A stretch of 64,000 bases of DNA from Rhynchopus sp. YZ270_cl-10 (taxonomy: Eukaryota): the NCBI GenBank assembly GCA_964035575.1, contig OZ037841.1, forward strand, positions 1,240,001-1,304,000, given 5' to 3'. The notes beneath the pieces were generated by a model, which was given only the letters and a program-made list of their open reading frames with translations, had not been told where the DNA came from and ran no database searches. Positions 5,051-55,669 of the stretch are shown here, in pieces. The position numbers and the translations under genes were made by a program. Position 1 is the stretch's first letter; every line of letters starts with the position of its first letter.

Positions 5051-8000
5051 GTGTACAACCCCGGCAAAGAAAAAAAATTTCCAGGAAAAAAAAACCCCAA
5101 AATGTCCGCGTTTTCTGGAATTTCAGACCCCCCCCCTCCCCCCCCAAAAACGCGGACATTGTCCGCGTTTTTTGTTTTGATGCCACCCCCAACAACTACG
5201 CACTAAGTACGCAACAAGTACGTAATATAGGGTATTCCTGTATTTTTTTTTCTCGTGCACAAAGTACGCAGCAAGTACGCAAAATGGGGTTTTCAGGAGC
5301 GCCAATAATAAAGTAAAACCGCCCCACAATTTTGATTCAAGGTTTGACCAAGCAGAGGTGGCTTAGGTTTATCTATGATTTTTTTATTTTCGCTGTGCTT
5401 CATATTTTATCTCCGGGGGTTCGATAACCCGCGGAGTGTCAGTGCCTGCGTCCCAGAGGCGTTTGCACTATCAACTTCACTTTGTCTATCACCCCGCATT
5501 TCACAAAAGGCGTCAATATGTCGACAGAACCCACTTCCATGGGCGAATTGTATTTTGCTAACTTTTTATTTTATTGAAAAAGGGTTTTGTGCAGGCATTT
5601 TACCTCAAAGAGGATTGAATTGTTCGGAGTTAGATTTTCAGAATTTTTCCAAAACAAAAAAAGGGTCGGATTTAAAGAAATGCTTGGGTTATGTGTCTGA
5701 GAGGCCTCTTCCATAATGTTATTTCAAAAGATTTATGTTATTTTGATGGCTTTTTGGAATAGTCATGTCACTTTGTGTGTGCATGATCCACTTTTTTTAC
5801 CGGGAAAAAACAGTTTGTTAGCGACACCAATAACACCAAACCATTTTTCACCGTAAAAAAACAAAAAAATAAAACGATTTTCCAGTCCTCATAACCCCGC
5901 GATCACAACAACGTTACTCCCCCCACCTTCCTGACACCCACTTCCTCTGTCTTTCCTCTTTTTGGATAGGTGCAAGGTGTACACTTCTGGAGTCAGGCCA
6001 GCTTATTGCACACGGGAGAGCTGCCACATCGAGGGGTGAGATGTGCTGCTTCTTCTTAATGACTTCTCGAGTCCGCATTGCACTTCGCGGTAGCCCCAAG
6101 GGAAGGCACCCTTCTTCAGAAGGTAGGGAATGCTGCCCACCCCTACCCCCTCTACACTGTCCGCGTAGATCCCCCCACGTAAGGAGTCATCTGATGCCAC
6201 AAAATTGCTCCCTCAAAGCGATGGCATTGGATGGCATGCATTGACGAACTGTGCAAATGATTGCCCCTTAATGTCACCTGCTCTGCTCCCATATGGTAAC
6301 TATCGTGCAAAACCCTAGGGCCATTTAGGCTTGGGGTGTAAGACGGTGGGGTGTTTTTCGAGTGGTTATGAAACGCCTTTTTTTGTGGTAACCGTGTGCC
6401 AATGAAATGCTCTCTGGGGGTTCGATAACCCGCGGGGAAGCAGTGCCTGCGTCCATGAGGCGTTTGCACTTTCAACTTCTCTTTTTTTTTTTTTTGTTTT
6501 TGTCATTGTGCCCTGCATCCTGAAGTATTGTGAGTATTTGAGTACAGAACCCACCTCATCAGTGGGGGGTGAATTTCAATACAAAAAGGCATACAAAAAA
6601 AAAGTGCTAATGGTTTACATGCTCTCAGGGGTGTATGCATGGTGCAAATCCTACGTTACACCACCGTCTAAAATTTTTTTTAGGTGACTAAAAAACAGTA
6701 TGGCTCAAGATCATCTTATTAACTCTTCCCCCCCTTCTTTTGCAGAAACGAGAGGTGATGGGGAGGAAGAAAAAAAAAAATACTCTCAGTTCCGAATCCC
6801 CCGAGTCCCTCTCGTTGATGTCTTTAAAAAAATTTTTTTTTGTCCCTCTTTCTCTCTTTTTTAGTGCGATTCCCGTTCCCCTCGGATATATTCCCTCCTC
6901 CTCCTCCTACGTTATCCCAACAAAAATGCCTGATTTTTTTTTTTTCAACCATTACTATTCTCACATCCCTTCAGAAGGATATACAATTTCCAACACATTT
7001 TTTTTTTCAACGCTCTATTCGCCGTAGTGCTTAAATGAGTGCACAGCGATGACACAAAAAAAGGGCAACACTAATTTGTTTTCAAATTAAAGTATTACGC
7101 TTCTCAACCCTGCCTGTTGCAGTCACTGCAAAAAAAAAAAAATGTTAGTGGAGTTCATCCTGTGTCTACACTAATACAACCAAGTTTTCAAAAAAGAAAA
7201 AGGAGGAAAACCCAGAGATTCGCTGTGTGCGCATCCTGGCCCCTTTTAGGTGGACGATTTATTGAGGTTACAAAACTAATGTAATGTATCCTCAGTGTGT
7301 CTGCACATGATACAGTGCTCTCGGCAATCAAAAATGCCTCGATCAGTACACTGATACATTTCACACAAAAAAAACCCAACCCCTTTTTTGAACGATGTTT
7401 GCGCCCTCAGACGGAGCCTTATCATCGCAGATATACCCCTCCCTTTTTGTTTTTTTTATTTTTGGAAAATGCGATGCGATTCAGGGCAAAAAACCCGACA
7501 AAAATTAATATATTGAGCATACCCCACCAGATCACTCTGAATCATTTGAAAATATTGAAGCTTTTTTTTTTAGCTTTGTCTTTTGTGAGGGCTCTGTTCA
7601 TTTTGTCTTTGTCACCCAAATGAAAGAAAGAAGGTTTTTGGCAGTAAGGTCTGTCACACAATACACCTAACAGATTATCAAAAACAAGAATAGTGTTTGG
7701 AAAACTGACAATATGCACTTGAAACACATGTTCGTTTTTGAAAAAAGAAAATTTCACGTTTTCCCCCCCTCCACCCTCTCCCCACTCCCCCACCTCCACA
7801 CCGCACACAACCATCTGATGCCTATGAACAAAGCCATCTCCTTAAATGGCTGGCACCGGATGGCAGGTGTGTGTACCCTGTAGAGATTCATGACACCGTC
7901 ATACACTAAGTGGTTGTGCTCACAAAGGGCATATCCTAGCAGGGCTCCTCTAAGTGGCCAGAGAGGGTTGCTCTTTCTGGGGGTGTGATGTCATGGCTGT

Positions 8001-9954
8001 GTGCGTCCTTCAGGAGCGTTGGTTGAGCATTTTTTCTTTGAGACATAAGAGGTGTACGAGAAGTGCAATCGGCCATTCTTTCCCCATTTTTTTTCAACTT
8101 ACCTTCCTTCACCCCCCTGTAAGGGCAACCGTAGGTGAAGTAAGGTATAGTATTGAAATCGATGTGGGGGGGGAGTAAAGGGTCAATTTTACAAAACCAG
8201 ATTTTGAGGAAAATTTTAGCCGAAAATGGGCCCCACGTATAAGGAACCGGGCTCATATTTCTCAAAATTTAAGTGGTCAAAAAATTATCCAATTTTCGAG
8301 ATTGACCCCACCACTGCACGGGCGGATCCCAAAAATGCAAATAAGGACCCTTTTTAATTTGTTCTCTTGAAATGTATAATTTCATGTTTTCGCGAAAAAA
8401 ATAACAACTGATCCCTACAAGGGTTGAAGGAAGGTGGTTGAAAATAACAATAACAACAAGAACAACTAATTGCTAAGAAAAAACGGGTGTGATGTGGAAA
8501 ACTCCGCGCGATTTTCGAAACCACCGTAGCATCCTGGCGATTTGGTGGAGGTGCTGATGCGCCTGGTGTGATCGATGTGTTGTAGTCTGTGCATTCTGTG
8601 TTCCTTCCGCACTGCTCCAACGACGACGACAATGTGGGGAGCCTGTGGACAACTACGAGCTGGAACACGCCCAGCCTGCCGAGCCGACGTCCAACAACGC
8701 TCTCGAGCAGATGGTGCTGGATGAAGAGGACAGCCCCCCTTCTTGAACGTTTCAGATGCTGGCGTCCCAGTGGGTCTGGCAGCGTACGAAGAGCGTAAGC
8801 ATACCTACAGAAGAGCAGAATGCTGGGCGTGTTGTAGATTATTTCTACAGGATGGAGTTCCACATCACACCCCGTTTTTTTCCGATAGCAATTACTTGTT
8901 TCACCTACAGACAATTCCTTTCCCCATGAACAGAGAGGTGCATTCTCAGCCGCTGTGTGCTCAACCAGCGGCTGTCTTACGATACCTAAGGAGATGTGTT
9001 ATGCAAACCAAAAAAAAAAAATCCGTGTGTCCCTCACAAGCATTCAGCATGTTCCAGTTGCCCTTTTAAAAAAATGTGTTTTTCTTCTGTGTGTGAGGCA
9101 CATTAAGATTTTCCTTGTTTTTTTTTTGTTGGAATAGTGTATGTTGCCATTTGTGCAAAGCGTCACTTTCCCCTTTGTTCCAACAGAACAGAAGGTCAAA
9201 AAAATAGGGATTAAAGCGTGGATGCTTTCAGGGTTGCAGTCTATAAATTAATAGAAAAAAAAATGTCCCCCCTTTTATTCGGATTCTTTTAATGGTGGGA
9301 GGGGGTGTATTTGGTCAGAGATATTTTGATTTAGTTCTGTGTTTTTGGTTTATTTCATTTTATGCTGATTCTTCTTCTTCTTCTTCTTCTTCTCTTTTTT
9401 TTAGGTGGCTAAGCAAAGGCTTAGGTTCATCTTATAAACTTTTTTCTTTTTCTTTTTTAAATTCTGCGTTGTGTTGTGTCCAGCTACGATGCCACACAAC
9501 ACACACCCCCCACCTCCGCAATGTTACACTCTTGAGACTATCCACACAACTGCCTTTTTTCCAACACACAGCCCTGTCTCCCACCCTAATTATTCAATTG
9601 TCACTCCTTGAATAAATTAGCAGAGAAGTTCACAGCATTTTTTGGGCGCAGATCTCACGCTCTCCGCTCAAGGCATGGAATTTCACCTTTTTTCAGAACA
9701 TTTTATTATGTGATCTCAACTAGGGTAAGGATAGAGGGGGACTAAATTTCCGTTCTTTTTTTAAAAATTTGGTTTGTTTCGGTGCTTTCAAGATGGCTAA
9801 GAGAGGCGAAGAATTATCTTACCCACTTTTTTTACCTCTTTTCTTACTCCTTCTGTTCTGCCCCTTTTGTCTCGGTGTGCCCTGGGAGTGTTTCCGCTTC
9901 TTTTTTTTTTTTTTTGCTAAAAAAAAAATGTTTGGAAAATAGTGCAACTTTCAC

Positions 9955-10105
9955 CACGGATACTGCCAGATCTGGCCAGATTTGGGGATCTGGGAAATTT
10001 TTTTTTCTTCCAGTTTGGGTACATTTAGTGCACCCTATTATACCATCTATTCAGTAGAATAGTTAGTATATGAAACAATTTCTTCCAGATCTGGCAGTAT
10101 CCGTG
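9955..10105. mobile_element. MITE with 21-bp TIR
   Basis: CACGGATACTGCCAGATCTGG ... CCAGATCTGGCAGTATCCGTG; flanks TTTCAC / TTTCAT (6-bp TSD, 1 mismatch). Confidence 0.75.
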
Positions 10106-12279
10106 TTTCATCTTTTTTCGTTTCTCTCTTTATTAACAGAGTGCACCTCACCTCCCTTGGCATATTTTGTTATGAGCACAATATGGTGGTGGAAAAAGAG
10201 AAAAAAAATAAATAGATGAACTATAGTCCTTCTCGTGTACGCACCTTCGTAACCTCCAGAAGCCTTAGTTCATTTTTTCTCTTTTTATCTCATTTTTGTA
10301 TTATTGCAATTAAGCGCGTGTTATGTGTGACACACCCGAGGTGAAGTCTTTCACGGTTACGTTTTCAGATGTAAACCACGAAATGGATTGTAGGACTGCA
10401 TGGTTGGGGTGTCCACCTCCCCCCCCGGTACAGCCGGTCATATACCAAGGTACACTGTCACGAGAGGGCTTTGTATTTCAACCCTACTTTTTTTTTCTCT
10501 TCTGTTCTTAACATAGTGATAAATGCTTCGAGATGTGTTGTGTTCCTTTTGTGTCAATACGGTAGTGTGTGCTTGGTGCTCCTTCTTTTCAGGATATAAT
10601 TTTTGTGACCTTTTTTAAAGGTGGCTAAACACCATAAGGGCTTGGATCATCTTACCAACCGCTTTCCCTATATTTCAATTTCGATGAAGTAGGCGGCCAC
10701 ACGCCATGTCCTTGCTCTCCTCTTTTTTTTTGTCAGGTTGTTAGACATTAATTTGTCTCACGTTTTATTTCGTCTTTTATGTGTTCGCGTGGTGCATCCT
10801 TCAAGAAAAAACTTATTTTGGCACATAAATAGGTCATAAATAGGACCAATTTTTCTCTTCTGTTGCCGCAGGTACTTTGTGCTTTCATCGGGGAGGGGCT
10901 GGCATCGTACAGTGAGTCAGTTGGAGGTGATTGCATCAGTAACTCTTTTTTTGTTGCAATTTTTTTCTCGTTTTCTTTTGAAATCAACAAAATCCGATCC
11001 CTATTTTTACAGAATCAGTATCATTTTCGTTGTTTATTTTTGCTCAGATTTTCTTTCAAATTGTTTTTTCCCCCGAAATTTTGTAAACAACTTCCGGCGG
11101 GCCACGTTTAGAACAGTGATTCTTAGGCTCGTCTTTACCGACTTTTTCATTTTTTATCCCCCCCCCCTTCTTGCTTTGCATCGTGTTGAGTTCGCTCATC
11201 TAGTGATGTATCTGCATTGGCAAACCATTTTTGTTCTTTGCTAGCCTTTGATTTTGTCTAAAACCAAAACAAAGAAAGGGTGCATGTGTTGACCCTCTCA
11301 AATACTTTCAATTCTGTGAACTGAAAGTATAATGAATCTAATTTTGATCGTGTGGTGTCTTGACACTTTCTTTTCGCGGATGGTATCATACAAACTCTCT
11401 TTGTTTTTTTTTTACAAACGACGCCCCAGGTTTGTGTTTATATTCCTCTGGTGTCGGCTGCGGGGTTGCGCTTATCCTGTTGAGGGTCGGCATTACAAAG
11501 ATTTTCCTGCTAGCATTGGTTCTGTTGCCTTCCTTACCTCTACCCTCTTACCCACAAGGAGCCTCGCCCATATTGTCTTTTCAAGGTGACTGGGAAGTGC
11601 GAGAGGTTTAGGTTCATCTCATAAACTTTTTTTCTTCTTCGAAGGTGGACCGCCGGATGAGTGCTTTGTGTACCGGCCCCCCCCCACTACCGGTAACCAA
11701 TAGGGTTCCTTTTTACACCTTTTGTTGTTTTATCCGGATGACAGGCATCGTGGGTATGGTGGTTATCAACAACTGCCATTTATTCTCCACATGGTGCGTC
11801 CAGTTGTCCGGTGAGACATTTTGTGCGTTTTTCAACCTCTTTCTTTTTCTCTTCGTCGATTTGTTTCCCTGATTTTTCTTTTTTTATCTCCACCCCCACA
11901 AGCCTCACACCAATACCTCAAACGAACAAAAGCAGATTATCAAACAATAGAGGGGGGAAACTGTCTTTTTTTTTTTTTTTTCTCTCTCCAAATTTGTTGC
12001 CGTTTTGGACCATCACCCTTTTCACTTTTCACCTGGAGTGACTTTAAGGCATCCTTTTTTTCTTCTTTTCCTCTGGGGGCGGTATCCCCCATTCCATTGT
12101 AAATATTCTGCACAGTTTTATAGTGACTAAGCACGAGAGGCTTAGGTTCATCTTATAAACTTTTCTTTCATTTCCCCCTCCATCCACAACCAATTTCAAA
12201 ACACACACTAAACCCCTTATTTTTCCAGGCAGCATTTTTGTGGGGTTTATCCCCCTTTCCCTCTCTATTCAAACACAAA

Positions 12280-13224: not shown

Positions 13225-16060
13225 AGTTTTTTTGGGGGGTGAGGTTTTTTTCTTGCCTTTTTTTCACTTGGCCGAGTGAAAGACCCCCTTTTCAAATTTA
13301 TGTGTAATCTTGATAACGATTCAAGGCGACTTAAGTTCATCTTAAATATTCTTTTGAGGAAGACTGAAAACTGACGACTGTCGGTGTGTGCCTGAGTTGG
13401 GACACAGGAGGGTGTTTTGCACTTCCAACGTTTTCTTTTTTAAAAACAAGACCTGCCTACCGTCCTTGCCTTGCTTCCGCGAGCTTCGTTGTTATTCAAA
13501 CAAAACGGGGATAGTCAATCCTTTGAAATCAGCCAACTCAACGCGGGTAATTTATTTTGTTCCTTCTTCTTCTTCTTTTGTTCCAGACATTCGTTTTTTC
13601 GACCTTTTTCTTCTTTTCCCTCGATGGAGATCCGATGCCTGCGTCCACGGCGTTTGCACTTCAACTACCATTTTTTTCATAAACTATTTTTCTTAACCTA
13701 CGATGCCGCCATGGCCTGAGCAGCATAAATGATTTTGCAACCGCACGACTGGCAGCGGTGTTTTTGTTGCAGTATCGGTGTCCGGTATGGCGTTTGCACT
13801 TTCAGCTTCTCTTTGTTAACGATAGTGGTAATGATGTGTGCACGAGAGGCACATGCATCATACAAGTTTTATTGTGATTTCATCCGGATGGCTGGCATCG
13901 TACGTGGGTCAGTCGGAGGTGCCTGCATTAATAACTTCACTGAATTTGTTCTTATTAAGAAGGGGATGTAGGTGATGGGGGATGTAGGCCACTCACACTA
14001 CCCTCGTCTTAAACCAAACCGTTATTTGGTATCACAGTGCTTTGCACTTCTTGTTGCACTTATTACTATAAAAAATTCTCTCCCTCCCATCCCCCTAAGA
14101 CTCCCCCCCTTTGTTTGTATTGCTGCAGCCGCAGGTTTAGAATGCTATTGTTTTGTCTTTTTGCAAACCTCGTGGTGGCGCAAACAACTTAGGGTTAAAA
14201 TCCTCTAAAAAGTTGGCTTTATTTTTCCTTTATTTTCTCTTTTTTTTTTTGAAGTTTTTTTTCCCACTAAGGTGAATCTACCCCCACTAAGCACAGTTGG
14301 GCTTAAGTTCATCACCCAAACCCCCCTTTTTTTCCCCCCTGTGTGCTGCTTGCAAGTTTCCTGTAAACAACTCTGGTGCAGCACCTGGGTTCGACAACCC
14401 ACAGAGCGTGCCTGCGTCAGAGGCGTATTCAAGAGCGTCCTGTCAAGAGCGGGGTTTGTATTTCAGGGGGAATCTGGCCTCTCGGCATTCCCACGCAAGG
14501 CCCAATTTACAACGTCGCGATAACTTTGTTCAAGGAGCTGTATTGCATTTGAAATATATGCTCATTGGCGGAGTGCCTATTTCCCCATCTTTCCAACTTT
14601 TTCATCTGTGTTTTTTTTTTGTTTTGTTTTGTTTTTGGTCGTTTCACTAAATTGTTTCTCAACTTTTACAAAAAAGAGAAAAAATGCAACTTTCTGTTCT
14701 TTGACCGCCTGATTTTTTCTATCGGAGTTTAGTGGAGTTTGGCGGAGTTTAAATACACTGAACTCCACCAAATTGCAGGAAAAATCAGGTGGTTTGATTA
14801 GAAAGTTTTAGAAAACTAATTTTTTTTTTTTTGCAAAACCAACAAACGAGTTTTGGAACGCACCCCCTTTATAACATATAAGTAACCCAAATGGAAAATG
14901 GTGTTTGCCTTTCTCCTGTGGGGTGAGACACAGTGTCTTCATTTTTTTTTTCGTGCCCTCTGGGGTTCTGCCTGCACCATCCGGTGCCCGATAAGGCGTT
15001 TGCGCTCTTTTCAACGTCTTTCTTTTTATTTCTTGCTTTTGTACGATAACGATGATAAGAAGTGATCAAAAGTGTCTGCGAGAGGCTTAGTTTCAGGGGC
15101 TTTTCTCTTACTCTAAACCATATGGCTTGCAAAGCAAAACAGCAAAACCTGGCCGTATTGTGATATGCTAATTGCCCATCATAATGCACATCGCAATACA
15201 GCATTGCAATGTGTATTATGATAGGCAATTTATCACAATTCATCCACTAGCAAAACCCCCTCCCATCCTCTCCATATGGCCTTACCGTCATATCGAACAA
15301 TCACCTCTCTTATCCTGAAGTCGGATTCTATGTTTTTTTTGTCAAAAAATAAAATAAAAAAAATACACGCGATTCTCCAAAATGCATTCCCTTTTTCCGC
15401 CCAGAACGGAAGCAAAATGCACAGAAACCAATGCATTTCGGAGAACCTGTTTTTTTTTCTTCTTCTCTTTCTCTCTCTCTTTTTGGGAACATTTTTTGAT
15501 CCCTATATGTTTATTGAATGCATATGTTGAAATATTCTTTCTCTTTTTATTGATAACCCCGCGGAGTGTCAGTACCTGCGTCCCAGAGGCGTTTGCACTG
15601 CCAACTTCAACCCTTTTATGCACCACAAAACAACCCAGGGTATTAACTTCGTTTTTTTTTTTTTCAGACTGGGCTAAATGAAACGTTTTTGCCCGAGGGG
15701 AAAAAAACGGCATAATTTTCCCCCAATTTTTTCCCGAGCCCAGTCTAAAAGGCTATGCTTAGGCGAAGCTATTACACTGAAACAACCTTTAACATCCCCA
15801 CCCGCATATCAAAGGCACATGTCTTTCTTCTACCCATCCAGGGGAGAGGTGTTCTTTTCGCCTTTAGATAAAAATGCTGACAACGAAAAAAAAAAAATTG
15901 CATTCTCCCTCTCCCTCCCTCTCCCTCCATCGTTTTTCTTCCCTCCCTTCCACAACCTCACACCCTCCTCCCTCCCCACCTCCCACAAACCACAAAAACA
16001 GGGAGTGCCTTAGGGGGGGAACCCGAGGGGAACTCCCCTCCCCCCCCTTCTTTCCCCAAA

Positions 16061-18736: not shown

Positions 18737-19415
18737 AGGAGGGTGTGATAGGAGGAAGGTGATGTGTCAAGCAAAAGGCAAAAAAAAGGTTCAGGTAAAT
18801 GGGTGCTTTAAAAGTGAAGTTGTGTGAAGGTTTTATTTGGTAATTTCCTTTTGGTTATTTATTCAACATCAGTATTCTTGTGTGCACGCGAGGCACATTC
18901 ATCTTTCAAGTATTTTTTTAGTGACTAAACACATAGTGTTGGTTGCATTGTGTGGTAGTAAGGTCAGTTTTTTTTTTGTTACGAACTGCTTCCCAGGGTT
19001 TGATAATATTCGATGTGGGTGGTGTCACTGCGGCAGGAGGAGTCTCTCCCTTCCCTGCTTGCAGTGTTTCGTTTTGAAAAAACGACTTTTTTGTTGAAGA
19101 AAAAGAAACATTCAGTGTGCCAGAATATGGTTAGGTTCATGAAATCTAATACAGGAGTGACACCGTCTTCACGGCCTGTTGAATGGCGACTCTTTTGGAA
19201 GTCTGTACACGCATAGCTACATTCATCTTTTATCTTTCACGCTTTTTGTTTGTTTCGTTTATGCTGTTTTGGGAATGCATTGTGTGTTAGCGTGGTGTGT
19301 TTTTTTTTTTTTTTTTTAGCACATTCAATTTTTAATCTTGAGATTGAACTCAAGAGGTCCGTACAAATTTGCGTGACCCTGACTGAGAAAAGTTATGAGA
19401 TATTTTAAAAATACT

Positions 19416-20020: not shown

Positions 20021-20186
20021 AATACGAAATAAAAAAGAAAAGAAAGAAAACAAAACAGACGTGTACAAGAGACATTTATCTTTTCACGTTTTCAATAGAA
20101 GGTGGGCATAAGATGGCACGCCTTATGTTGGTATATCCTGTTCATGCCTACATAACTTTTCTTGTCAATCTGTTCGACGTCCTAGT

Positions 20187-20979: not shown

Positions 20980-21352
20980 GTACTGTAGGTACTGTAGGTA
21001 CTGTAGGTACTGTAGGTACTGTAGGTACTGTAGGTACTGTAGGTACTGTAGGTACTGTAGGTACTGTAGGTACTGTAGGTACTGTAGGTACTGTAGGTAC
21101 TGTAGGTACTGTAGGTACTGTAGGTACTGTAGGTACTGTAGGTACTGTAGGTACTGTAGGTACTGTAGGTACTGTAGGTACTGTAGGTACTGTAGGTACT
21201 GTAGGTACTGTAGGTACTGTAGGTACTGTAGGTACTGTAGGTACTGTAGGTACTGTAGGTACTGTAGGTACTGTAGGTACTGTAGGTACTGTAGGTACTG
21301 TAGGTACTGTAGGTACTGTAGGTACTGTAGGTACTGTAGGTACTGTAGGTAC
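20980..21352. repeat. Perfect 9-bp minisatellite (GTACTGTAG)n, about 41 copies, flanked by inverted AAAGTGCGG arrays
   Basis: Directly visible; produces spurious YST/LQY/TVP/CRY ORFs. Confidence 0.97.
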
Positions 21353-21475
21353 AGTTTTCGCACTTTTTCCGCACTTTTTCCGCACTTATTCGCACTTTTA
21401 CCATGTTGGCTTGCTGACTGTGTCTGTGTACCTGTGTAGGTACACAGTATTCTGTGGGTACCTACCGTACCTGTA

Positions 21476-21547
21476 CCTGTGTACCTGTGTACCTGTGTAC
21501 CTGTGTACCTGTGTACCTGTGTACCTGTGTACCTGTGTACCTGTGTA
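21476..21547. repeat. 8-bp tandem (ACCTGTGT)n in the loop of an inverted repeat (about 21355-21680)
   Basis: Arms ...GCTTGCTGACTGT and ACAGTCAGCAAGC... flank the array. Confidence 0.9.
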
Positions 21548-25644: not shown

Positions 25645-25675
<31 letters not shown>

Positions 25676-28600
25676 CAAAAAAAAAAAAAAAAGAACGGAA
25701 AAGGTGGGCCACCTTTTCCGTTCTACTGAGCTAGGACCCTGAGTTGGCAGAAAAATTTTATTTTGTGTTTCGGTTCGTTTTCTTCTGTTTTTTTCTTCTT
25801 TTTTTGGTAGCTTAGCATGAGATACTCATGTTATCTAACCTACTTTTGTACCTTTCTTTCCTTTTGCACTGGAAAGACAAGGTGGGGGTCAAAGCGCCGT
25901 CCGCATTACTTTATCCTTTGCCACAAACGGCAGTGGAGATGAGGTATGCGCACGACCTGCAAAAAACACACCACCTTTGTAAAGGAAATTGTGCACAGAA
26001 CTAATTCTGCCTATTTGTCTCTCCCTCTCTCTTATATATTTTTGGAAAAAAAGAAGAAAAAAAGGCTAGGTGCATTCAGTGCACGGGATGGACTCGCATT
26101 TTTTAAAGAAGACTGTCTGAATGGCGGCCACACTGAACAAAACAAATTATCAAACTGCCCCCTTCCCGATCAATCCCGAGTCAGTGTTTGTTTGTTTTGT
26201 TTGTGTTTTTTTTCTTGCTATATTTTTTGTAGTACAATATGCGGCTTCCTTCCCGTTCTTTCTGTTCCTTCATTGGTGCGTAAAGGTACATCTGTCAAGT
26301 AATTTTTTGTTTTCTATTGTCCATTGCACTCTTTTTTGTTCATTATTTCAACCAACAGAGTTGTACAGTCATTGCGACATGGTGACGGAAACGTTCCACG
26401 TACCAGATGACTCTAAATAATAATGACAACGAAAGAGGAGGGCATTACGAGGTGCCGTGGGAAAAACATGTGTGGTCTTTTTACGCCAAGGTTTGGGAAT
26501 CAGGCCCAACCTTTTGATTGTGTCATTCCCAGCTGCTGTAGGTCGCCGTATTTACACGGAACTTCAAAATCTTTTTCTTCGTCGTGTCAGTGCTGCGTCC
26601 CAGAGGCGTTTGTACTATCAACTTCACTTTTCTTCTTTTGATCCCGACAGAATTTTATCAACCAAAAATCATAAAAAAGGTGCGACTTTCTTTAGCTGAT
26701 TTCGCTGTTTTTTTCTTCACCGGAATAAGGCCGACCTTGTTAGAAAGTCACACATTTTTTTTTTTTCGAAGATAACTGAGCAACGAAAGACTTAGGATAA
26801 TCTTGCAAAAGCTTTTCTTTTATAACTTTCCCCGAAGTCAGCTTTCCCTTTTATTCCTTTTATTCCTTTCATTTATATTTGCCTTTCCCTATATTGTTCG
26901 ATCAAACCCTCTCTCTCTCTCTCCCTCCCTCTCCACACCCTGCAAGGTGAGCTGTGCTGCGATACCCCATTACCCCCCATACACTGTACATCGCTCCCGT
27001 GGGGGTTCGATAAACTCCGTGAGGGCGTTGCAAAATCGGTGCAATTTCACTTCCAACAATTAAAACGGTACCCTGTGGGGGAAATGTGTCCAAACACAAT
27101 TGTACGATTGTGTTTGGGAATATATCCCTCTTTTTGAGGGGTCATTCCCAATCATATTTACCCACAACGGTATTTGGAGATTGGAAAGGGAAAAGAAAAA
27201 TGCAGCACTCCATTCTCCCCCGCTCAGCCTTTCAAGGCAATGAGTACCAAAGAGAAGGATTTAATATTTTCCCTCCCTCCATCCACAGTGTCTGCATTTG
27301 CAATTTTTTTTTTTCTATTCCACCCCCTTTTTTGTGTGCATCTCAGGCGTCAAGGGATCAGATTCACATTTTTTTTTTTTTCGCCCCCTTTTTTTTTGTT
27401 CTTTTTTCTCTGCTTCCCATTTCATCAGCGGAATGTGTTCGACGTTAAACCAACCACCAATCACCACAACTCAGCCACACTCTAGGGGACTGGACTACTG
27501 GGCCTTCTATTTTCGCCAACGGGAAGAGTGTGGTGCCTCTGTGCACACCAGAGTCTTCCGTATGGCGTCCCTTTTTCATCAGGCTGCACGGTGACCATGT
27601 GCCCGGTACTTTCCTTTTTATTCCTACGAAGCTTGCTTTAAAGGAGAAATAGTATTACCGGGGTACGGTCGCCAAATCATCCTCAGGAGGATTTTGTGCA
27701 ATCAACGAAAAACAACTTTACTTACCGATCCTATTTGTGTACCGTGCTAAAAACGGCAACATGCATTTAAACGTAATGCAAACAATCATGATATTTAGCA
27801 TGGTGTCCGAGGCTGGTCACTGTGTACGCCCAAATATTGGGGTGCACTGTTGCGACAGCCAGGTAGTCAGCATCACGTTAGCTTCATTGGAGCACCCCGT
27901 TTAGGTGCACCAAAATACAGAAGACTCCGATGCTTCGTGTCAGATACACATTTTGTTTTTTTTATTCTTATGTGCGAGACTATAAGACACCTCTGTTAGG
28001 GGGTGGCTATCAAATACGCAGTGCGTGTATGATACACTGTGGGGATGGCCTGCCGTTTCACCAGATGAGAATGGTGGTATTTTTTTTTTTAGAGAGTGTT
28101 TGGATAGTGAAGGAGATACCATCCTTTGTGAAACAGATCCTGTCTAAAAAATGATGATTTTTTATCAAAAGGTCAACTAAGCACAGTCAGGACCAACCCA
28201 GGTTCATCTAACACACAAAAAAACTTTTATTTTTCCACTATTGCAACGCCCTAACGCATTTCTGTTTTCTAAACATATTTTCCAAAAGGTGGCTAAGCGC
28301 GAGAGGCTTAGGGTCATCTTATAAACTTTTCTTTTCCGCAAGATGCGTTTGCACTCTCAACTTCACTTTTCTGTACATCACACGGTTCCCTATTTCTTCA
28401 AGATGGCTGAGCACTTCCCAAGGCTCGGGTTCATCTTACAAAACTTTATTTTATCGATGCACCTGCCGCCATCGAAGGGGGCGGTGTCTTGCAAGCATTT
28501 CTTTATGTGCGTGAAATTGCCGTCAAACAAAAAACAGGGATTTTTTTTTTTTCCAGGGAAGTTCCACCCCTGAAATCTCAATGCAGTGTTTTGTACTTTT

Positions 28601-34646: not shown

Positions 34647-36857
34647 GGAAAAGGGAGAATTGTAGAGTGTGATAACCTCTTGAGCAAAACCTTCGTGAGG
34701 AGTGAGGTTAGAGAGGTGGGTATATGGCCAATGCCTTTTTTGAGGTGAAACGCAGTGTTTTAATCTGATGAGTTCTTTTTTTGGGAGGGTTTTTTTGTTC
34801 GGGAAGGAGAGCTGATTTTTTGTCTTTGAAAAAACCCAGTCTTTTTGGAGATTGATGTTGCCGGTGTGTGGTGTTTTTTTTGTCAGCGTTCCAAAAAAGC
34901 AATACTAACTTTTACCCCCCCTTTCCCCCCGGGTATTTTTTGTTTTGTGACAGAAAACAAAACCGACCTCTCTGCTCTGCTGAGTGGGGTGAGAAAAACA
35001 CATTTTTCTCTATTTTTTTTTTTTTCTTCTTTTTCGCGGGAGCTTTTAGGTGCTTCATTCGAGGATTATTTTCATGATTTATGGTTTATGACTTCAATTC
35101 ATATTGGGTGTACAACAGAAAAATCCCCTATGTATTTACCGTGTTTTGACATAACGCCGTTTCTTGGCTGTCATATATGTTTTTTATTACATACGGGGTT
35201 GGTAGTTTTGAACGCTCTATTTCAGTGAGTTTGCACGAAGCTTATTCAACTTTCAAGTCGCCCTTCTTTTTCAGGGTCAGAAGCAGTCAAACACCTGTGT
35301 GCTTATAATGTAGGGCGGCCAATATGATACGGCGTTGCATCAGATATCACATAGCCTACACATTTTATCAATTTTTTCAAAAAAATTCTTTTGTTCGAGC
35401 GAGGGTATCCAAGCGGTTCTAGCCTTGAGGGAGCGTGAGGGGTGAAGGTGAGGGGAAAAGGAGAAGAACAAAACACAGGCTTGCCCTGTTGCCACACATA
35501 TGGTGCACACTTTGTTTTTTTTTATTGTCCCTTCTCCGAAAAGAGGCTCCAAGGGCTTCCCCCTCTCATGCTCATCTCTTCTTCCCTTCTGTAGATGATT
35601 GTGCACGAGACATAATTCATCGGTCACGTTTTTTTCTCTTTACCCCGTTTTTGGGTCGTTCGTTTTTGACCAATTTCAGCCCTTTTTAGGAAATTTAAAA
35701 TAGGCGACCACATAAGAGAGGCTTAGGTTCATTCTACAAATTTCTCTTTTTTTATTTTTCAAATGGTGAGTGGACATGAGAGGCTTGGAATCATTCCAGC
35801 ATTTTTTTTTCAGTGCCTGCGCTCCGATGAACGGTTGAGGCGTTTGCACTTTCAACTTCTCTTTTTTTTTCTTCAGTTCCTACGTCCACAGAGGCGTTTG
35901 TACTAAACTACCTCATTTTTTTGGTTCAACTATCCGGTTTGTTACGTTACGTCCTGCTTGCTTTATGTCCCATTGAATTGATGCATCGGAAAAAGAGGGT
36001 GAAAAGGGGTCTGGGTGGGGGGTGCAACCCCTGTACGATAGGCAAGGGACTATGCGTGCATGGTACGTGGCATCTCAAGGGCAGTGGTGATGTCCTAGAT
36101 GAAGCAGTTGCATGGATGCATGGTGGTGCTACGTGGTGGAAGTAAAAACAAAAAAAAAAAAAAAATAGTGGAGTTCATCCTTGGGTGTCTACACTAACAC
36201 AACCAAATTTTCAAACAAGGAGACGGATCTTTATGCCAGTAGGTGTAAAATTATGGATACAACAATAAAAATGGCGAAAAGCCACGTTCGAGTTCAAGAT
36301 GATTAGTGTCTATATCTAGTACAACAGCCTTTGGGCGACAATTGAGTACAGTACCCTTGCTTCGGTAGGTGATTGTCGACATAAATATTTTTGACACAAA
36401 AAAAGGTGCTATTGTGTGGAAAAGCAGTTGTGGGTTCCTATTAGTGGAACAGTGTGTGTATGTTTGCTATCAGGCGTGGGTTATTCCCTGATATTTGGAT
36501 TATAGCCCACTGTGTCGATACAACAAACAAAAAAAGGGGGGCAAGAACAGCAAAAAAAAAAAAGTACTGTAAGAACGAAAACCCACCCCACCTAACCTAT
36601 CTCTTTTCAAAAAAGAAAAAAGGGCGATTCATTTTCAACTCCATACCCTCTCACCCCCTCTTCCCTCCCTCCCTCCGCCATCTCCTCCAATCTCCATCTC
36701 CTTTTCTTCCAGAAATTTTCATTTAAGGTGACTAAGCAACGAGAGGCTTAGGTTCATCTTATAAACTTTTCTTTCATTTCCTCCCTCCATTTGGCCCACC
36801 CCTTCTCTTCAATCTCTCTCTCTCTTTCCCCTTTCTTAATTCAATGAGATTGAAGGT

Positions 36858-38936: not shown

Positions 38937-39757
38937 GAAAATCTTGACAGATATGTGTGTGTCGAAAAGGAAATAAGGTTTTCTGGATTTTCTAGCTTTC
39001 TATGTTTTGCGATTGGGGATGCAGCAGTGCATTGTCTCCTTGGGTCGTGCCAGATAGACATCAGAGGAAACGATTCGCACCTAGAGTCGTCTTTGCATGC
39101 TTATCGCACGTATTCTCATTTATTGTAGTGAAATTGCTGGGGTTTGGGTGTGAACGCAATTGTACTTTTAAGCAGGGAAGGGTCTGCGGTTTTTGTTTTT
39201 ATTCTGGGGCAATGATTATGTACCCGCATACACTCGTGGTAACCGTGTGCATGCCAATGAAGTGCTCTCTGGGATTCGATAACCCGTGGAATCAGTGCCT
39301 GCAGGTCCGCCGATGAACAGTGAGGCGTTTGCACTTTCAACTGCTCTTTTTTGTGTTGTGTTTTTCTCTTTTTTTGGTCTTGCAAGCCTCTGCAGTACAC
39401 AGTACAGCGGGCACCTCATCCTGTCCCTGTTGCGCTAACGCACGACAGGCTGGGTACTGGGTACCACCGAGTACGGGGGATAGCGGGATGTACCAATTTT
39501 TTGCAAAAACAAGGCAACTAACTACAGGGAAAGCTCGGGAAGTATTCACGTTACTTTAAGGAACTGCACCACCACCAAAACACTAAACCTAGAAGAACCT
39601 GAGAGAGGGACCTTTTTTACCTATTTTTGGGGAAATTGCACCAGAAAAACCATCATATTTCATATTTCATTCATATGTCATCTCGCCTGCCCTGGTTGTA
39701 TCGTCAAAAGCAACAATATATAAATAAAGAAATACCCCACCCCTTCTGATTGTGTCA

Positions 39758-39986
39758 CACGACGGTGATGTAACGGGTGTTACAAGTGGAGTTACAAGTG
39801 AGTTACATGTAACTTTTGTTACATGTAACTCACTTGTAACCCACTTGTAACCCACCAGTTACAACCTGATTTTGCCTGTAATTCATGTATCCCACTTGTA
39901 ACTCACTTGTAACTCACTTGTAACGGTTTTTCACTTGTAACGCTACAAGTAACTTCACTTGTAATGTACTGTACATCACCGTCGTG
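39758..39986. mobile_element. MITE with 15-bp TIR and internal TTACAAGT/ACTTGTAA arrays
   Basis: CA|CACGACGGTGATGTA ... TACATCACCGTCGTG|CA (possible 2-bp TSD). Confidence 0.75.
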
Positions 39987-40141
39987 CAGCTGTTCTCCGA
40001 TACTTTTGACAACCCCAAACACGAGTCAGTAGCTAGTCCCTTCAGCTCGTTCGAGTGCACCGTGCTGTGGTCTCTATCGGCACAGCTTGGATGAACAGAG
40101 TGCGAGGAGCGTCCCCATTCATCACAACACCACACCACACA

Positions 40142-43100: not shown

Positions 43101-44555
43101 AACACAACGAAGACCTTTGGCACGCACTAAACTCCTGGGTGCGAGGACTTCAGTGGGCCCACGTCGGGTCCGAACACTCAATCAGCCTCATCGAGCTGGC
43201 AGTGGACTTTGAGCTCACCACAGGAATGCCGCTCCCAGACGTTGGCAGCCGCCGCTATCCGCAGTTCAAAGCCTCTACCTCGTCGTGCACGGTTAGGGAC
43301 CATATCGCGGACCACAGCGGGGTGGAAATGTTCTTTGATGGCGGAGCAAGACAGAACAAAACTGTCTTCGCGAGGGCTGGGGCAGGAGCGGTGGTATATG
43401 TGGATGGTGTCAAGAGCGCATCGGTGGCCACCCCACTTCCCTCAGCCAGAAGCAACAACGTGGCGGAGTACGAAGGAGTCATCAGTGGCCTCCGCCTCCT
43501 CAACGAACTCCCCTCTGAGCTGCAAGGCCCGGTCACCATCAGCGGAGACTCCAAGCTGATTGTGGACCAGCTCCGGGGGGTAGCTGACTGCAACGATTTC
43601 CTCAAACCGCTGTTCCTCGTGGCTAAAGAACTGATCAGAGAGGTTCAACCCCGTTTCACCCTGGGGTTCCGCCACATCGCGCGAGAGCGAAACAAGGACG
43701 CTGACGCTCTCAGCAACCAGGCAATGGATGAGGTGGAGAACCAGAAGCAAGCAGAACTCGCCGCTGCCTCCTCGGAACGCGACACCTTCCTGCAAAGCGC
43801 GTTGGCCAAGTCACTCTCACTGGGCGAGCTGATGCAGACCTTTGCGAAGGTGTACAAACCGCAGTCCTGGATGTACGGCCACTACACCAACGTCACTAGC
43901 CTTACTGCCATCGGAGGTTCGGTGACCAGTGGTGTGAGCAAACGAGCAGTTCTCAACAGCAAAACTGAGGAGGTACTGCGCCACCTACAGTCGCACATAG
44001 CAGCCTTTGCAGGGAACCGCCGCTCCCTCTTGTACGAGGAGACCCAGGCTTGGGCAGCCCAGTTCCGGCCACAAGAGCATTACGCTGATGACTGGACTGA
44101 AGCCTCCGCAGGATGGCGAGGCAGAGCGACTGAAGCCAGAGCTGCAGGAAGGGCCCGCCCACCTCGCACGGCCCCTCCAGACGCCAGAAAGTGCGCCAAA
44201 ACCTTGTCTTGTCTGACCCACGGCAAAGTGCGATGTAACTCGTGCAAGACGCTGCGAGCCGCTCCAGAAACCTGCTGCAGCCTACACCACACAGAAGGCG
44301 ATGGCCGCGCCATTGTGATGGACTTCTGCACGAGACATAGGCTCACGAGATGTGGGGCATGCTTGCTAGACAAGAAATCATTGGCCCAGTGCTGCGGAAC
44401 GTGCCACACACGCCACATCAATAACAGCACGTCAGCACGAGGCACACTCCCTCTACATCACAGGCAAGACCCCGCGGGGTCTTCGCAGGTGACGTAGCCC
44501 CCCCCACACCTAAGGGCCATATTCTGCGCAAGAATTACCCTCACTAGGCATTAAC
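40142..44555 (+). mobile_element. 5'-truncated non-LTR retrotransposon (RT, zf-RVT, RNase H, Cys/His-rich tail)
   Basis: Candidate 12-bp TSD CCACACCACACA (40130-40141, 44556-44567). The reading frame is open from the left boundary and no endonuclease domain is seen. No poly(A) tail. Confidence 0.88.
40152..44497 (+). pseudogene. Retrotransposon pol ORF split by two +1 frame changes
   Basis: RT motifs RPITI, DFQKCFD, GIMQGCPLS and YVDD. zf-RVT CPYC..ETVEHLWWDC. RNase H FDGG / NNVAEY / GDS / NKDADALSN with all acidic residues. Frame breaks at about 41820-41900 and 42532-42536. Confidence 0.85.
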
Positions 44556-44580
44556 CCACACCACACAGAGAGACACAACA

Positions 44581-46224: not shown

Positions 46225-46465
46225 TCGGCAACAAAATGAGGGTGCGGTTGGGTTGTGCCGAGTTGCTTCAGCAGGTACAGCTGTGTGATGTTGTTGTGTC
46301 TCTGATATTGAACGGGACAGGGGAGGGGATGGGATGGGCGGTTAGGTATCGGGGTGGTTTGATTTGTTTCTCTGACGTCACCCTCCCGTCACTACCCCAT
46401 CGCTTTAGCACTTTTCAGTTATCACTCAAACCACCACCCCTTCTTCAGGCCACCCCACACACACA

Positions 46466-47791: not shown

Positions 47792-49458
47792 ATGGGGGAG
47801 GAGGGAGGAGGACTCAGGGGGGTATAGTTTCATCTTAGAGCATTGCGGTGTAAAAAATAGACAGTCATAGAATGACATAGAATAGAAGGGGAGGGGAAGG
47901 GAGGAGGGGGGTGAAAAGGCGCTGCTGTTATGATTGCAATAGCGTTCTTGTGATCGGGTTGTGTACAAAAAAAAGTAGTGGAGTTCATCCTCGGGTGTCT
48001 ACACTAATACAACCAAGTTTTCAAAAATAGAAAAGTGGAGATTGTTGTGGCAAGCTACACGATGTTTTTTTCAAATAGTTTATCAAAAAAAGAAAGAAAG
48101 TTGTTGCTGGCCCGTTTGGCCTTTCTCGCAAACCCGTATGCTATACGGGGACTTTGTGTATTAGAAATTATGTGAATCCAATGCCGGTTTGTCGGTGTCG
48201 CGATGCGCCCTATCTGATCGTTTATACTTTTTTATTAGAAGGTGACTAAGCGCGAGCTTAGGATCATCTTATAAACTTTTTCTTCCTTTCTTTATTATTG
48301 CGCATGTACGTCCCGGCAGATGCCTTTGGTTCCCTTTAATATAATTATGTATTGGTGAGTATGTGCACAAGCACATTCATCTTTCAAGTTTTCTTTTTCT
48401 CAATTTTATCTTCTCTTTTTTTAAAAAAACAGTGAACCTGTGTGAACCCTGGCATGTCTGTCTCCAAATATGCCAATGTGAATTTTTTTGTAAGGTAGCA
48501 AGCCGGGAAAAGCACACGTAATCCACATGTACCCAAATTTTCAATTTTTTTTTTCCACATGTTGAAATCCACACTTTCCACCGGTGCAGCGTAATCCCTG
48601 ACAGGGCTCATCTTACCAACAATACCAAGCCAGTTTCTATTTTATTTTTCTAAGAGATGAATGTGCACGAGAGGCACGTTTATCTACACGTTTTCTCTTC
48701 TCAATAATTTATCACCTCTTCCAAGGGTCTGTCCATGATATGAAGGGACCACCCGATGGAAGCGTTTGGGATGAGAACAGTGCAGGTATTTCATCCCCCA
48801 ACCCCCCCTTTATTATAGTCCCGTCTCCAGGTAACGGCGACTAGCACCGAGTGGATCAAGGAGTATCTTACTGTTTATTCTCCTTTTGATGCACACTTGT
48901 TCATTTTGTATTTTCTTGTTGTCTGCAGGGTACTGCTTTTATCCGGGGCTGGCATCGTTCGTACCTGCAGCAATAGCTAACGTCTATGAATTGAACGTTT
49001 CAAGCGTTCCCCACAACCTTCCTTCACCCCCCCCTGGAGGGTCAGGCTCAACTCATCTTTCAAGTTTTCAGTTTTGTTTATCTTCGCCCCACTGTCAACC
49101 CCCTCTGACAGCCTGTGTGAGTGCTTCTCCCCCTTTTCTTTATCAAGGTGACTAAGCACGGGAGGCTTAGGTTCATCTTTTCTTTTTGTCAGTGCCTGCG
49201 TCCCAGAGGCGTTTGCACTATCAACTTCACTTTCTTTTTCCTTTCTTCAAATCCTATGTTATGTTAGTAACGTGCGTATTTGCGCCCCTCTCTCCCCCTC
49301 CCCCTCCCCCTCTGAGAATCTTTCATCTAAGCATCAGAACGGCTCAGGTTTCTTAACCCCCCCCCTCCACTCTCTTTTATACAACTTTCAGAATCTTTCC
49401 ACTATTTTTATCACCCCACTTACAGCACCTCCCTCTCCCCCTCTCCCTCACACAAAAA

Positions 49459-50483: not shown

Positions 50484-51356
50484 TGGTTGACGACGCTCGT
50501 TGGTTCGCATTTGGGTTGGAGTAGGCGGGGGGGTGAGGGGGTAGTGACTTAGTGGGGGTGGGGGGGAGGAGAAAGACGACTTGCTTCTAGCCCGAACCTT
50601 GTAGCTTTTTGTTTTATTTCTGGAGTGTCCTTTTTTGATTTTATTGGTGTGTGCACGAGAGACATCCATGTCTTTCCCCCTTTTGTCTCTATTATTGTCC
50701 AAAGGGGAAAGCGATGGTGGGTTTGTTCTTAGGTTTTGTTGTCAGCCCATTAGTTCTCTCTCTTTTTTCTTTCCCTCTGTTGCGCAGACAGTTATGTTCC
50801 TCCCGTCTCGTGTGAAAACGGGCTGCAGTTTCAGGAACACAGAACTTTGTTGCAGCTCTCCTTATTCTGTGCATCATGCAGCACACCTGACATCCACATG
50901 TGGTCAATGAAGTGTCCCTCTGTGGGTGTACGGTACAGCCAAGGCGGAGAACCAGTACTCTGCGTGTCTACCTGCATCTAGAGGGTGTTTGCACTTACAA
51001 CAAATGAACACATGCTCCTTTTTCTTCACCCTATGACGGAATTTGGGGGAGAAAGCTGAACGAAAAGAAATGCAAGGAGTTACCTTGCAATGTGCACACC
51101 ACACTTTCAGAACACAAAAAAAAAAGACCACAAAAGACATGCACATTACTTCAAAATATGAAGCTACCCAAAAATTCTCCTATCTTTTTTACTCTATGTT
51201 TTCACTCCCTACAGCTGGCACAACACCCCCTATCAGATAGCACACACTTGCTACCCCACACACCCCCCCTCCTCCCCGCTCATACGTACGCTCAGTTCAA
51301 TCTTTTTGGATATAAAGAGCCTTTCTTCCCCACCCTTTTTTGCCTCTCTCTTCTAA

Positions 51357-53180: not shown

Positions 53181-55669
53181 TTTTTTTTTTCAAATAATTT
53201 GGTTTTTCAGCCCCTTCTAGGGGAAGAGAATGCAAGAATTTTAGCGTGATTTTTTTTTTTAGTGTGTTTTTTTCAAGGTGAAACAGAGATATAGGTTCAT
53301 CTTAATTTTTTTAAAAATAGTGCTTCTCTTGTGTGTGTTGTTAAGAGTCTCATTTTTTTTTTTGTTCCCTGATTCCATGATGAAAATACTTGTTCCCCCC
53401 AAAATTGCCGCCATCGCAATGAAATTCCCCTTCGTTTTCGTTTTTTTCTTTTTTCACCAAACCAATGCCCTTTGAAATACCAGAAATTAAATTTCTGCTT
53501 CAATTTTTTTTCAAATAAACCCCCCCATCCCTGACTCCCATTTGGGTTCGAAGGCCAGTGTGGAAAAAAAGGGGGGTTTTTTTTTAGTGTCCTTTTACAA
53601 TGTGATACAAGAAGTTGTGTTGCTCGAAAAAAAAAAATCTGTTATGCTCAAAGAAGACTATTTTACGACACGTTGTGATCCCTCAGCGCTAATATTTTGA
53701 AACGGGAATATTTTTTTTAAATTGTTTTGTTTTAAAGGTAAAGGCTAATACCTATCTTAACCAGCCTTTTCTCTGTTGTTATGTATTATGTTCTCTTAAT
53801 TAGAACGAGGTTCTTGTTTTTTAATCTTACTCACTCATCTTACGCTTCTTTGATTTTTCTCTTGGTTTTTTTTTTTTATAACGTTTATGAATTCTTTATT
53901 GGTATTTGTTACCCGGTTTTTCTTATTCGCTTTTCCCGTTAAGCGCGGTTTCGCTTCGTTTGTTTTGTCAAATTGTTTTTTGTTTTTTGTTTTTTGTTTT
54001 TGTCGTCCAACCCACTAATTTTAAAGCTAAACCATGGCAAGGGTATATCAATACTGCTGATTGCTTTCTGCCTTTTTGAGTATACAGATAACAGACCCGA
54101 ATCACCCATCAAAGATGGGTATTTCGGTTATTGTCGACACCACAGCGTGTGTGACGTCATGTCACACACTGAGTTTTTTTTTTAAAATATTTCACCATCA
54201 CCACCACCCCCGTCAATCCCTTTCAGCGATACGCTATGCTGTCTGCAAAAACAAAAAATGCTAATATTTTCCCTCCTCAGGTGATATTATTTGTACAGAC
54301 CCTCTCGAGAAAAAAAAATATATATCAGAAAGATGCATAACTACACCGAGAACACCATTTTCATTTTTTTTTTTCCAGAGAAATGTAAAAAAAAAAAATA
54401 CGGCGAGAAAACATTTTTTGGTTTTCTGCGTGACTTTTGTAAAAGAAATAAAGACAATTTCAGAATAGTATATCGTAAAGAAAGTACAATAACCTATAGA
54501 GGCAGGGAGGGGAGGGCCATCTGTCTGTCGGTGCGTTCCCTCCTATGTCTTGACCCCCCGACCCACCCCCCCTTTTTTTTTGCCTCAAGTGACCCATCAC
54601 AGCGAGGCTTGGGATCAAAACCCTTTTTCTTACCGAAAAAAAGTTGTTCAGTACTGCAGACACGTTCTCCCGTGTGACCTGGGCAGAGACCTTGCTGTCT
54701 TTGCTTCCTGGAAAATGGGAATTCCTTCCTTGACTGCGTCGCGAATGTCGATATGTCATTCTATTTTCAAGAAAGTGTCATGTGCGCAAGAAATTGGCTG
54801 TGGAAAAAAAAAATCCCTCTGTCGCTTGCTGCTGGCGATATTTCCCCCTTTTTTTTCCGCAGTTCATTTTCCAACCCTTGACTGATTTTTTTTTTTTTTG
54901 TTGGGAGGTGACTAAGCATAGCGTTAGATTCATCTTCCCAACCCTTTTTTTTTTCTTTCTTTTCCTCCCTTTTTTTTCTTTGAAAAATTGATAACGCGTA
55001 GTCCTGTGGTTTCCATGTTTTTTTTTTCTTCCTTTTTTTTTCGTGTTTGCACTTTCATCCTTAAAGGTAACAGCCCCTCGCCGTATCCTTGCAACATCCC
55101 AACTTCTTCGAAACGTTGCGTTCTGAAACAGAGAAGGGGAATGCTGGGAGAGGTACACAAGGGATGCATTGCCATTTGCATACGCACACACACCACTCTG
55201 ACGACTAACCGACAAAAAAAGCTTCTCAAAATGGCATATTATAGAGTGTGTGCGCAGCTTTCTTCTGTGCAATCTTTTTTTTTTTTTTTTTTTTTTTGCA
55301 CGCCAGCACACCAAGGGGTTGTAAGATGGGTCAAATATTTTTGAAAACCAGAAAACCAGAAAACCTATCTTATACCCTGAACACACAAAATTTACAAACA
55401 AAAAATTTTGGACAGTGGAGATTGCACAACTGTGGCAACACAACCGAGGCAACTACACTACTCCAACAATTTATCAAAAAAAAAAGCAAAGCTTCAGTTA
55501 TTAGTGTAGACATCCTTGAGTGTCTACAGTACTTCAAGTTTTCAAGCAAATTTAAAAAAAATCTGGACAGTGAAGGCTGCACCAACAGATTATCTAAAAG
55601 GGCGCCAAACAAAATAAAATTATATCCTACCTTTTTTGGGGTGGCGACAAGGGGGGTCGGAACTGGGCA

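Follow-up and report, generated by a model that had tools for sequence, protein, structure and literature searches.

A dispersed gene-sense hairpin repeat in a Rhynchopus gene cluster, probably a SINE2-type retroposon with a tRNA-like head

Gene control in diplonemids is chiefly post-transcriptional. Diplonemid genomes, as described for Diplonema papillatum, combine directional gene clusters and trans-splicing with RNAi genes and long 3' untranslated regions (UTRs; median ~800 bp in D. papillatum), and the genome paper leaves the non-coding elements unresolved (PMC10161547). In trypanosomatids, short retroposons are described as having arisen from ingi or VIPER by deletion (PMC12278014). Short interspersed elements (SINEs) of the SINE2 type, including the T-tailed grass element ZmSINE2, are dispersed and non-coding, with a fixed 3' end, a tRNA-sized colinear head, a structured tail and a simple-sequence end (PMC3747384, PMC5786205). 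Here we describe family B, a short hairpin-forming repeat in a window of 64,000 nucleotides, the whole stretch analysed, from Rhynchopus sp. YZ270_cl-10 (GenBank assembly GCA_964035575.1, contig OZ037841.1, positions 1,240,001 to 1,304,000, forward strand). Our results point to B as a dispersed gene-sense repeat, namely a SINE2-type retroposon copied from its 3' end by the reverse transcriptase (RT) of a long interspersed element (LINE), with most copies consisting of the stem-loop only; we put the probability of this reading at roughly 0.65.

Ten host genes, mostly without introns and all on the + strand, form a unidirectional cluster at ~12.3-53.2 kb of the window, and transposon-rich blocks lie at both window ends and at 19.4-25.7 kb. 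When the 18-nt 3' motif of family B was searched with at most 3 mismatches, 11 matches were found, all on +, compared with 0.14 expected, and 11 or more were reached in 0 of 100 shuffles. A profile hidden Markov model (HMM) built from nine copies, with a cut-off of E<=5, returned 18 matches, again all on +. Sixteen of these belong to family B (nine being the seeds), and those at 8913 (E 0.67) and 29770 (E 3.4) are background; the best match in the reversed window had an E of 0.6. The original prediction had listed 15 copies, all on +, and every listed position was confirmed, although two are weak by score, that at 13388 (E 0.81, or 0.094 with a tail-only model) and that at 14965 (E 0.18, or 0.053), both arms being visible in each. 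Two further copies were found, at 26995-27055 and, as a 3'-arm remnant, at 55043 (Table 1). Some descriptions had to be revised: the copy at 14408, listed among the 5'-short ones, is divergent, extends 5' to 14346 and carries damage in its 3' arm; that at 50975, not counted among the long copies, is long and extends from ~50899; and that at 28343 is present on + as a 3' arm alone, not as a full hairpin. One metagenome match (L001) was treated as chance: the coding region around it looks bacterial, and the remainder of B is missing there.

The predicted combination of a fixed 3' end with variable 5' truncation was borne out, with 14 of the 16 B matches ending at model positions 105-113 of 113 and starts ranging from 2 to 92. 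Progressive shortening of the 5' side was not; the 5' ends instead fall into classes, located at the hairpin foot, at a small hairpin or near full length. Family B has, as a SINE2 does, a fixed 3' end, a simple-sequence tail and 5' truncation. This 5'/3' asymmetry does not arise merely from the use of a 3' motif to define the family, because a model of the head alone recovers the four seed heads, each with a tail behind it, and otherwise a weak match at 26999, so that strong copies consisting of a head only are lacking. The copies at 5440 and 49190, both of one young subfamily, have 40-nt tails that are 100% identical, with heads of 29 and 3-4 nt, respectively. Moreover, the long-loop subfamily B2 comprises a long copy (39233) and a tail-only copy (35811), so that both loop subfamilies include long and short forms. 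The same tails with unequal heads, together with long and short B2 copies, therefore suggest that shortening occurred copy by copy rather than in a separate short master.

Contigs of four sequencing runs, out of six that contain the region, were compared with the window; they cover genes and spacers evenly, like DNA. Single-copy depth in run X1 is ~100; where a bin contains hairpin copies, depth climbs to tens of thousands or higher. Along the 6385 copy, depth rises from ~2,000 at 6386-95 to 144,084 at 6441-45, with a flank of 100.8; because overlapping contigs were summed, 6396 is the site of a deletion private to this copy, and 6470-6500 was left out, these depths are not read as copy numbers or as a clean truncation curve. 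A 150-nt stretch with one B copy drew 378 contigs from one run, and distinct flanks indicate that B loci number at least hundreds. Family B is thus short, dispersed and non-coding, with 16-17 copies in the window and hundreds of loci. At 39305, 135 contigs of run X3 and 102 of run X4 run in with a consensus T-run directly before the hairpin foot. Loose ends occur before 39233 (35 and 34 contigs) and, among the 6 of 55 rows listed, before 6385, 6397, 6416 and 6417 (12, 9, 12 and 24 contigs). The parent RT element anticipated 5' of the head did not emerge, the loose-end rows listed giving no sign of a long parent.

The full B unit comes to ~125 nt: ~77 nt that resemble a tRNA form the head, and a stem-loop of 45 nt and then a T-run follow. 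The head was compared with a reference of 43 tRNAs without the T-arm search motif (18 of phage T5 and 25 neighbours in viral contigs). That of the 39233 copy aligned over 60 nt, from the D arm to the acceptor stem, with a score of 40.5; none of 300 shuffles scored as high, and among 300 intergenic 62-mers of matched GC content one did. The D-loop and T-loop motifs lie 37 nt apart (range in 41 tRNAs, 35-39), and the distance from the T-loop motif to the head/tail junction is 22 nt, equal to the tRNA median. In the loose-end consensuses, a common 5' start lies ~15 nt before the D-loop-like motif, the tRNA median being 15. In addition, positions 14346-14351 are the exact reverse complement of 6438-6443, the last six head bases of the 6385 copy, as expected of an acceptor stem. 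In the alignment, the D-loop-like and T-loop-like motifs, where the A and B boxes of an internal RNA polymerase III promoter would be expected, are present but degenerate.

Several results weigh against this assignment. The heads at 6385 and 14346 are weaker, their scores being attained by 21 and 34 of 300 shuffles, and the 5' start depends on loose-end consensuses with an agreement of 0.52-0.54. The T-loop-like motif carries one extra base, and the D and anticodon stems pair poorly. The head was called neither in three Rfam scans (irrelevant sub-threshold matches only) nor by ARAGORN (0), and a tRNA HMM gave E values of 14-24 on it, no better than on the reversed window. The comparison, moreover, was with phage and viral-contig tRNAs, not with host tRNAs. 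We hold with moderate confidence, chiefly from the single copy at 39233, that the head is tRNA-derived, as in SINE2. A stretch at 14160-14180 resembles the presumed 5' start of the B head, with the rest of B not there, and was left unscored by the head model.

The same anatomy would arise if B copies were retro-pseudogenes that all stem from one non-mobile master, a small RNA gene of the host whose product folds like a tRNA. Small-RNA retropseudogenes with tail or head truncation have been described (PMC3747384), and no partner LINE tail was found in the window. Such an origin is nonetheless quite unlikely, since B falls into two or more loop subfamilies that differ in age and include long as well as short copies, which points to several successive masters; in addition, there is no Rfam match, and four sister families behave alike. 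Scattered pieces of rRNA or mitochondrial DNA are abundant in D. papillatum, which holds ~3600 28S pieces and >1400 nuclear mitochondrial DNA segments (NUMTs) (PMC10161547). It is extremely unlikely that B is one of these, as three Rfam scans returned 0 rRNA family matches and NUMTs would be neither strand-fixed nor share a 3' end.

All 16 B copies are intergenic within the gene cluster and sense to the genes, and none lies in coding DNA or in the 17.9 kb of transposon-rich non-coding DNA, which contains 142 T-runs. The length-based P of this position bias is 2.5e-4, for intervals drawn post hoc. Distances range from 162 to 9604 nt to the preceding stop codon and from 229 to 6800 nt to the next ATG. 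The T fraction of the flanks is 0.43 on the 5' side and 0.51 on the 3' side, with a background of 0.33. T-runs make up 66-72% of the T/A-runs on + in cluster spacers, and this strand bias alone would give 16/16 B copies on + with P 0.001-0.005. Four sister hairpin families, A, C, D and E, share the orientation: 60 of the 62 matches of the five families are on + (B 16, A 25, C 4, D 4/5 and E 11/12), a count from which one palindromic D self-match and two E matches overlapping A were dropped and in which several weak matches were kept. For A and B together (41/41), the T-run bias gives P <=1e-6. Strict sense orientation therefore needs more than T-tract targeting, because the T-run bias is too small and family D, located in A-runs, is still sense. 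Elsewhere in the genome, the joints among the 15 of 1144 rows listed include A-B, A-A, A-D, D-B, B-A, B-B and B-D, and, for family A, 285 contigs of run X1 join behind 36774. No longer form of family A was seen. Family A starts with AG/GT and has a later AG/GT inside, so that its sequence resembles a putative GT-AG micro-intron of 23-27 nt.

The original prediction described a conserved stem with a 2x2 pyrimidine internal loop and an upper stem. Of 14 stretches that were folded, four have this as their minimum-energy structure (5409, 6380, 49186 and 35808; z -2.0 to -3.4), but not the rest; it is partly kept at 13628 and 15550, and the whole 39230 copy is less stable than its own shuffles (z +2.1). 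In the B stem alignment, 88% of the cells pair and two pairs are altered on both sides. The proposed covariance check gave no signal above control within B, 20-140 of 500 shuffles equalling the covariation measures; an alternative stem register scores about equally, and covariation in family A was not above shuffles either. The sense fold was more stable than the antisense fold in 4/4 B and 7/7 sister copies tested. Families A and E have the lower stem and loop in common and the upper stem exchanged on both sides, which is a block compensation between families.

These observations bear on whether the B hairpins are kept as RNA elements in the polycistronic transcript, acting on 3' UTR stability or translation or marking sites of trans-splicing or polyadenylation, much as SIDERs act in Leishmania, a proposal compatible with a SINE origin. 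It would account for the 60/62 orientation beyond the T-run bias, for the lack of B in coding and transposon-rich non-coding DNA, for the better folding of the sense strand and for the two-sided A/E exchange, and the long 3' UTRs of D. papillatum (PMC10161547) also count in its favour. However, covariation in B and A stays within the shuffle range, the distance to the stop or start codon is not fixed, the A/E swap reflects selection on masters rather than on single copies, and the transposon-rich blocks are perhaps just younger. We consider retention as RNA elements rather unlikely. Selenocysteine insertion sequence (SECIS) elements, C/D or H/ACA guides, and hammerhead and hepatitis delta virus (HDV)-like ribozymes were dropped as candidates, their core motifs not being seen on inspection by eye. 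A reading of B as non-canonical introns was also set aside, since the setting is wrong, with 0 copies in coding regions; introns in UTRs could still fit.

A further explanation takes the hairpins to be recognised as DNA and to represent ends or derivatives either of a single-strand DNA (HUH, rolling-circle) element or of a miniature inverted-repeat transposable element (MITE). A variable-loop hairpin followed by a fixed TCAA-containing box, without a target-site duplication (TSD), would suit this, and the layout presumably resembles the right ends of IS200/IS605. Yet terminal inverted repeats are lacking, the hairpin lies internally between flanks of unequal length, all copies are on one strand, the G-U pairs favour sense RNA, and a tRNA-like head with a T-tail would be unexpected. 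Among the 15 open reading frames (ORFs) scanned, only a DUF659 transposase-like ORF and the LINE were found and no transposase of this kind, and scanning viral contigs for the exact B and A patterns gave 0 matches. A DNA-hairpin origin is accordingly very improbable.

The SINE2-type reading itself meets difficulties at the insertion sites and in the search for a partner. TSDs, which were to be sought around B, average 3.8 nt versus 3.56 nt with swapped flanks (p=0.35, n=15); boundary duplications of at least 6 nt occur in 7 of 15 copies, all but one T-rich, and the longest boundary-anchored one is 10 nt, mostly T. Because the B flanks are T-rich, this test has little power. For family A, the comparison with swapped flanks gave p=0.74. 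The sole LINE in the window (~40140-44556, +), in front of a leucine-rich repeat (LRR) gene, has no sequence similarity to B. It is 5'-truncated, with RT and RNase H broken over three ORFs, a clean 12-bp TSD, no poly(A) and its own 3' stem-loop, and no short derivatives of it were found within the window. Twelve LINE RT matches were obtained, and the named ones (5/5) are from D. papillatum at 54-60% identity, in line with a diplonemid host. Intact relatives carrying endonuclease, RT and RNase H are P0001 (1991 aa, 99% to the window LINE) and P0002 (75%), the latter from another LINE family and with 0 matches in viral contigs. An OTU-like protease domain precedes the endonuclease in P0001, P0002 and the D. 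papillatum protein P0007. The original micro-retroposon reading gains support from the fixed 3' end, the nested 5' extents and a tRNA-like head that the original prediction had not recognised; TSDs and covariation were not above control, and the window LINE is unlike B in sequence.

Under the SINE2-type reading, RNA polymerase III (Pol III) would transcribe the B unit, ending in a U-run, and a candidate LINE protein would recognise its 3' stem-loop. Priming would take place where the U-tail meets polypyrimidine tracts, on their A-rich bottom strand, and this would account for the T-rich flanks and for the stacked A, B and D copies. SIRE, a short repeat of Trypanosoma cruzi, also inserts in polypyrimidine tracts. 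Reverse transcription would usually stall at the folded head or just inside it, and the discrete 5' classes would result. The sense bias is likely due either to insertion coupled to transcription or to removal of antisense copies, the latter because antisense copies would form double-stranded RNA in polycistronic transcripts.

Families A to E together amount to ~60 copies in 26 kb of intergenic DNA, nearly all sense. They may constitute a superfamily of micro-retroposons, 45-nt hairpins that one or more tRNA-headed SINEs seeded and that were domesticated as a dense, modular post-transcriptional RNA code for polycistronic transcripts, a scenario we regard as unlikely and put forward only tentatively. 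If true, it would be an independent, Pol III-derived parallel to the SIDERs of Leishmania. By eye, the stem in all five families is followed at the 3' end by several bases, then AA(C/G), then a T-run.

Table 1 Copies of family B and of the sister hairpin families in the window
Feature	Position	Strand	Description
Longest B copy	39233..39346	+	tRNA-like head 39233-39295 (5' ~11 nt missing), long-loop stem-loop tail, TCAAC box, T-run
Long B copy	6385..6481	+	Head from D-loop-like GTGGTA; 4 nt deleted near 6396 in this copy alone; tail with short loop; T-run
Divergent 5'-complete B copy	14346..14428	+	3' arm damaged
Old divergent long B copy	50899..51001	+	Only clear G-C to A-U change in upper stem
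Medium B1 copy	5412..5480	+	Start is T-arm-like small hairpin
Medium B1 copy	15551..15610	+	Start inside T-loop-like motif
Extra B copy	26995..27055	+	T-arm-like hairpin, then divergent tail; E 1.2, noise level by score
Tail-only B1 copy	49188..49230	+	Directly behind family A copy; tail same as 5440 copy
Tail-only B1 copy	26585..26627	+	
Tail-only B2 (long-loop subfamily) copy	35811..35861	+	
Degenerate tail-only B copy	35874..35908	+	Directly behind 35811 copy
Tail-only B copy	13632..13669	+	3-nt loop
Degenerate tail-only B copy	13768..13811	+	
Highly degenerate tail-only B copy	13386..13429	+	Weak score
Degenerate tail-only B copy	14966..15015	+	Long loop, weak score
B 3' arm and box only	28340..28366	+	Directly behind family A copy
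B 3'-arm remnant	55043..55059	+	E 0.64, noise level
Family A	25 matches, 5345-54942, e.g. 12123-12161, 36725-36767	+	42-nt hairpin with T-runs on either side; stems of 7 and 6 bp around a 2-nt bulge
Family E	13830-13872, 18873-18915, 19196-19236, 35592-35633, 48354-48394, 48655-48696, 50643-50669		
Family C	10871-10944, 11728-11774, 13875-13936, 48929-48978		Sense hairpins
Family D	7141-7192, 36161-36215, 47971-48025, 55497-55546		Hairpins in A-runs

Other features of the window were recorded alongside the hairpin families. A 592-bp near-perfect inverted repeat with a 9-nt spacer (314-1506) adjoins a 743-aa DUF659 (hAT-like) transposase ORF (1826-4057, -), and subterminal repeats related to it occur at 4381-5031, 8178-8354, 55914-57321 and 60363-60631. 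Perfect tandem arrays with units of 9, 8 and 7 bp (20980-21350, 21464-21547 and 62550-62900) lie within the transposon-rich blocks. A MITE-like element at 39755-39995 has inverted ends, contains short repeats of the GTTACAAGT type and is present in high copy, with a depth of ~93,000 versus 100 in run X1. The 378-aa protein encoded at 29149-30285 (+) has 0 Pfam matches; its top Atlas cluster (0.96) is eukaryotic, mostly Euglenozoa and 20% DcpS_C, the next matches being aprataxin/HIT-like. In the gene that ends at 34646, a likely canonical GT-AG intron with a CA-rich interior was noted by eye at the 5' end (~33606-33697).

Compared with described euglenozoan elements, family B resembles the ingi-derived Leishmania SIDER1/SIDER2 and Trypanosoma RIME/NARTc, which are likewise intergenic in directional clusters, biased to the sense strand and preceded by T-rich sequence (PMC2323293, PMC2689281). 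SIDERs, however, are 450-790 bp long, with an A-rich 3' end, 11-19-bp TSD vestiges and a ~4:1 sense bias, and are deletion products of ingi (PMC2323293, PMC2689281), whereas B is 45-125 nt long, T-tailed, tRNA-headed and 16/16 sense; B is not a SIDER or RIME, because it has neither an A-rich 3' end nor an 11-13-bp TSD. SIRE, which derives from VIPER, is also a short dispersed euglenozoan repeat from an element class without TSDs, but it consists of VIPER split direct repeats (PMC12278014), which B lacks, and B has a tRNA-like head. In the D. papillatum genome, dispersed repeat motifs number nearly 10,000, the origin of many being unknown, and SINE-like rRNA pieces also occur; the available part of that account describes no tRNA-headed or oriented hairpin family (PMC10161547). 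Five B and A motifs gave 0 matches in seven supplements of the same paper, Additional file 1 (repeats/UTRs) not being among them. A search of the literature, with repeat databases outside its scope, found no description of a tRNA-headed SINE in a euglenozoan. Dense oriented hairpins of this kind are testable candidate signals for post-transcriptional control in diplonemids with long 3' UTRs. With SINE2, family B shares the dispersed non-coding distribution, the fixed 3' end and the order of tRNA-sized head, structured tail and simple-sequence end. It differs in having no body domain, in being mostly tail-only (~45 nt), in TSDs not above control, in the lack of a partner LINE in the window and in the co-orientation of all copies with polycistronic transcription. 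If confirmed, B would therefore extend SINE2 to diplonemids in a form that is T-tailed, mostly tail-only and strictly co-oriented with transcription.

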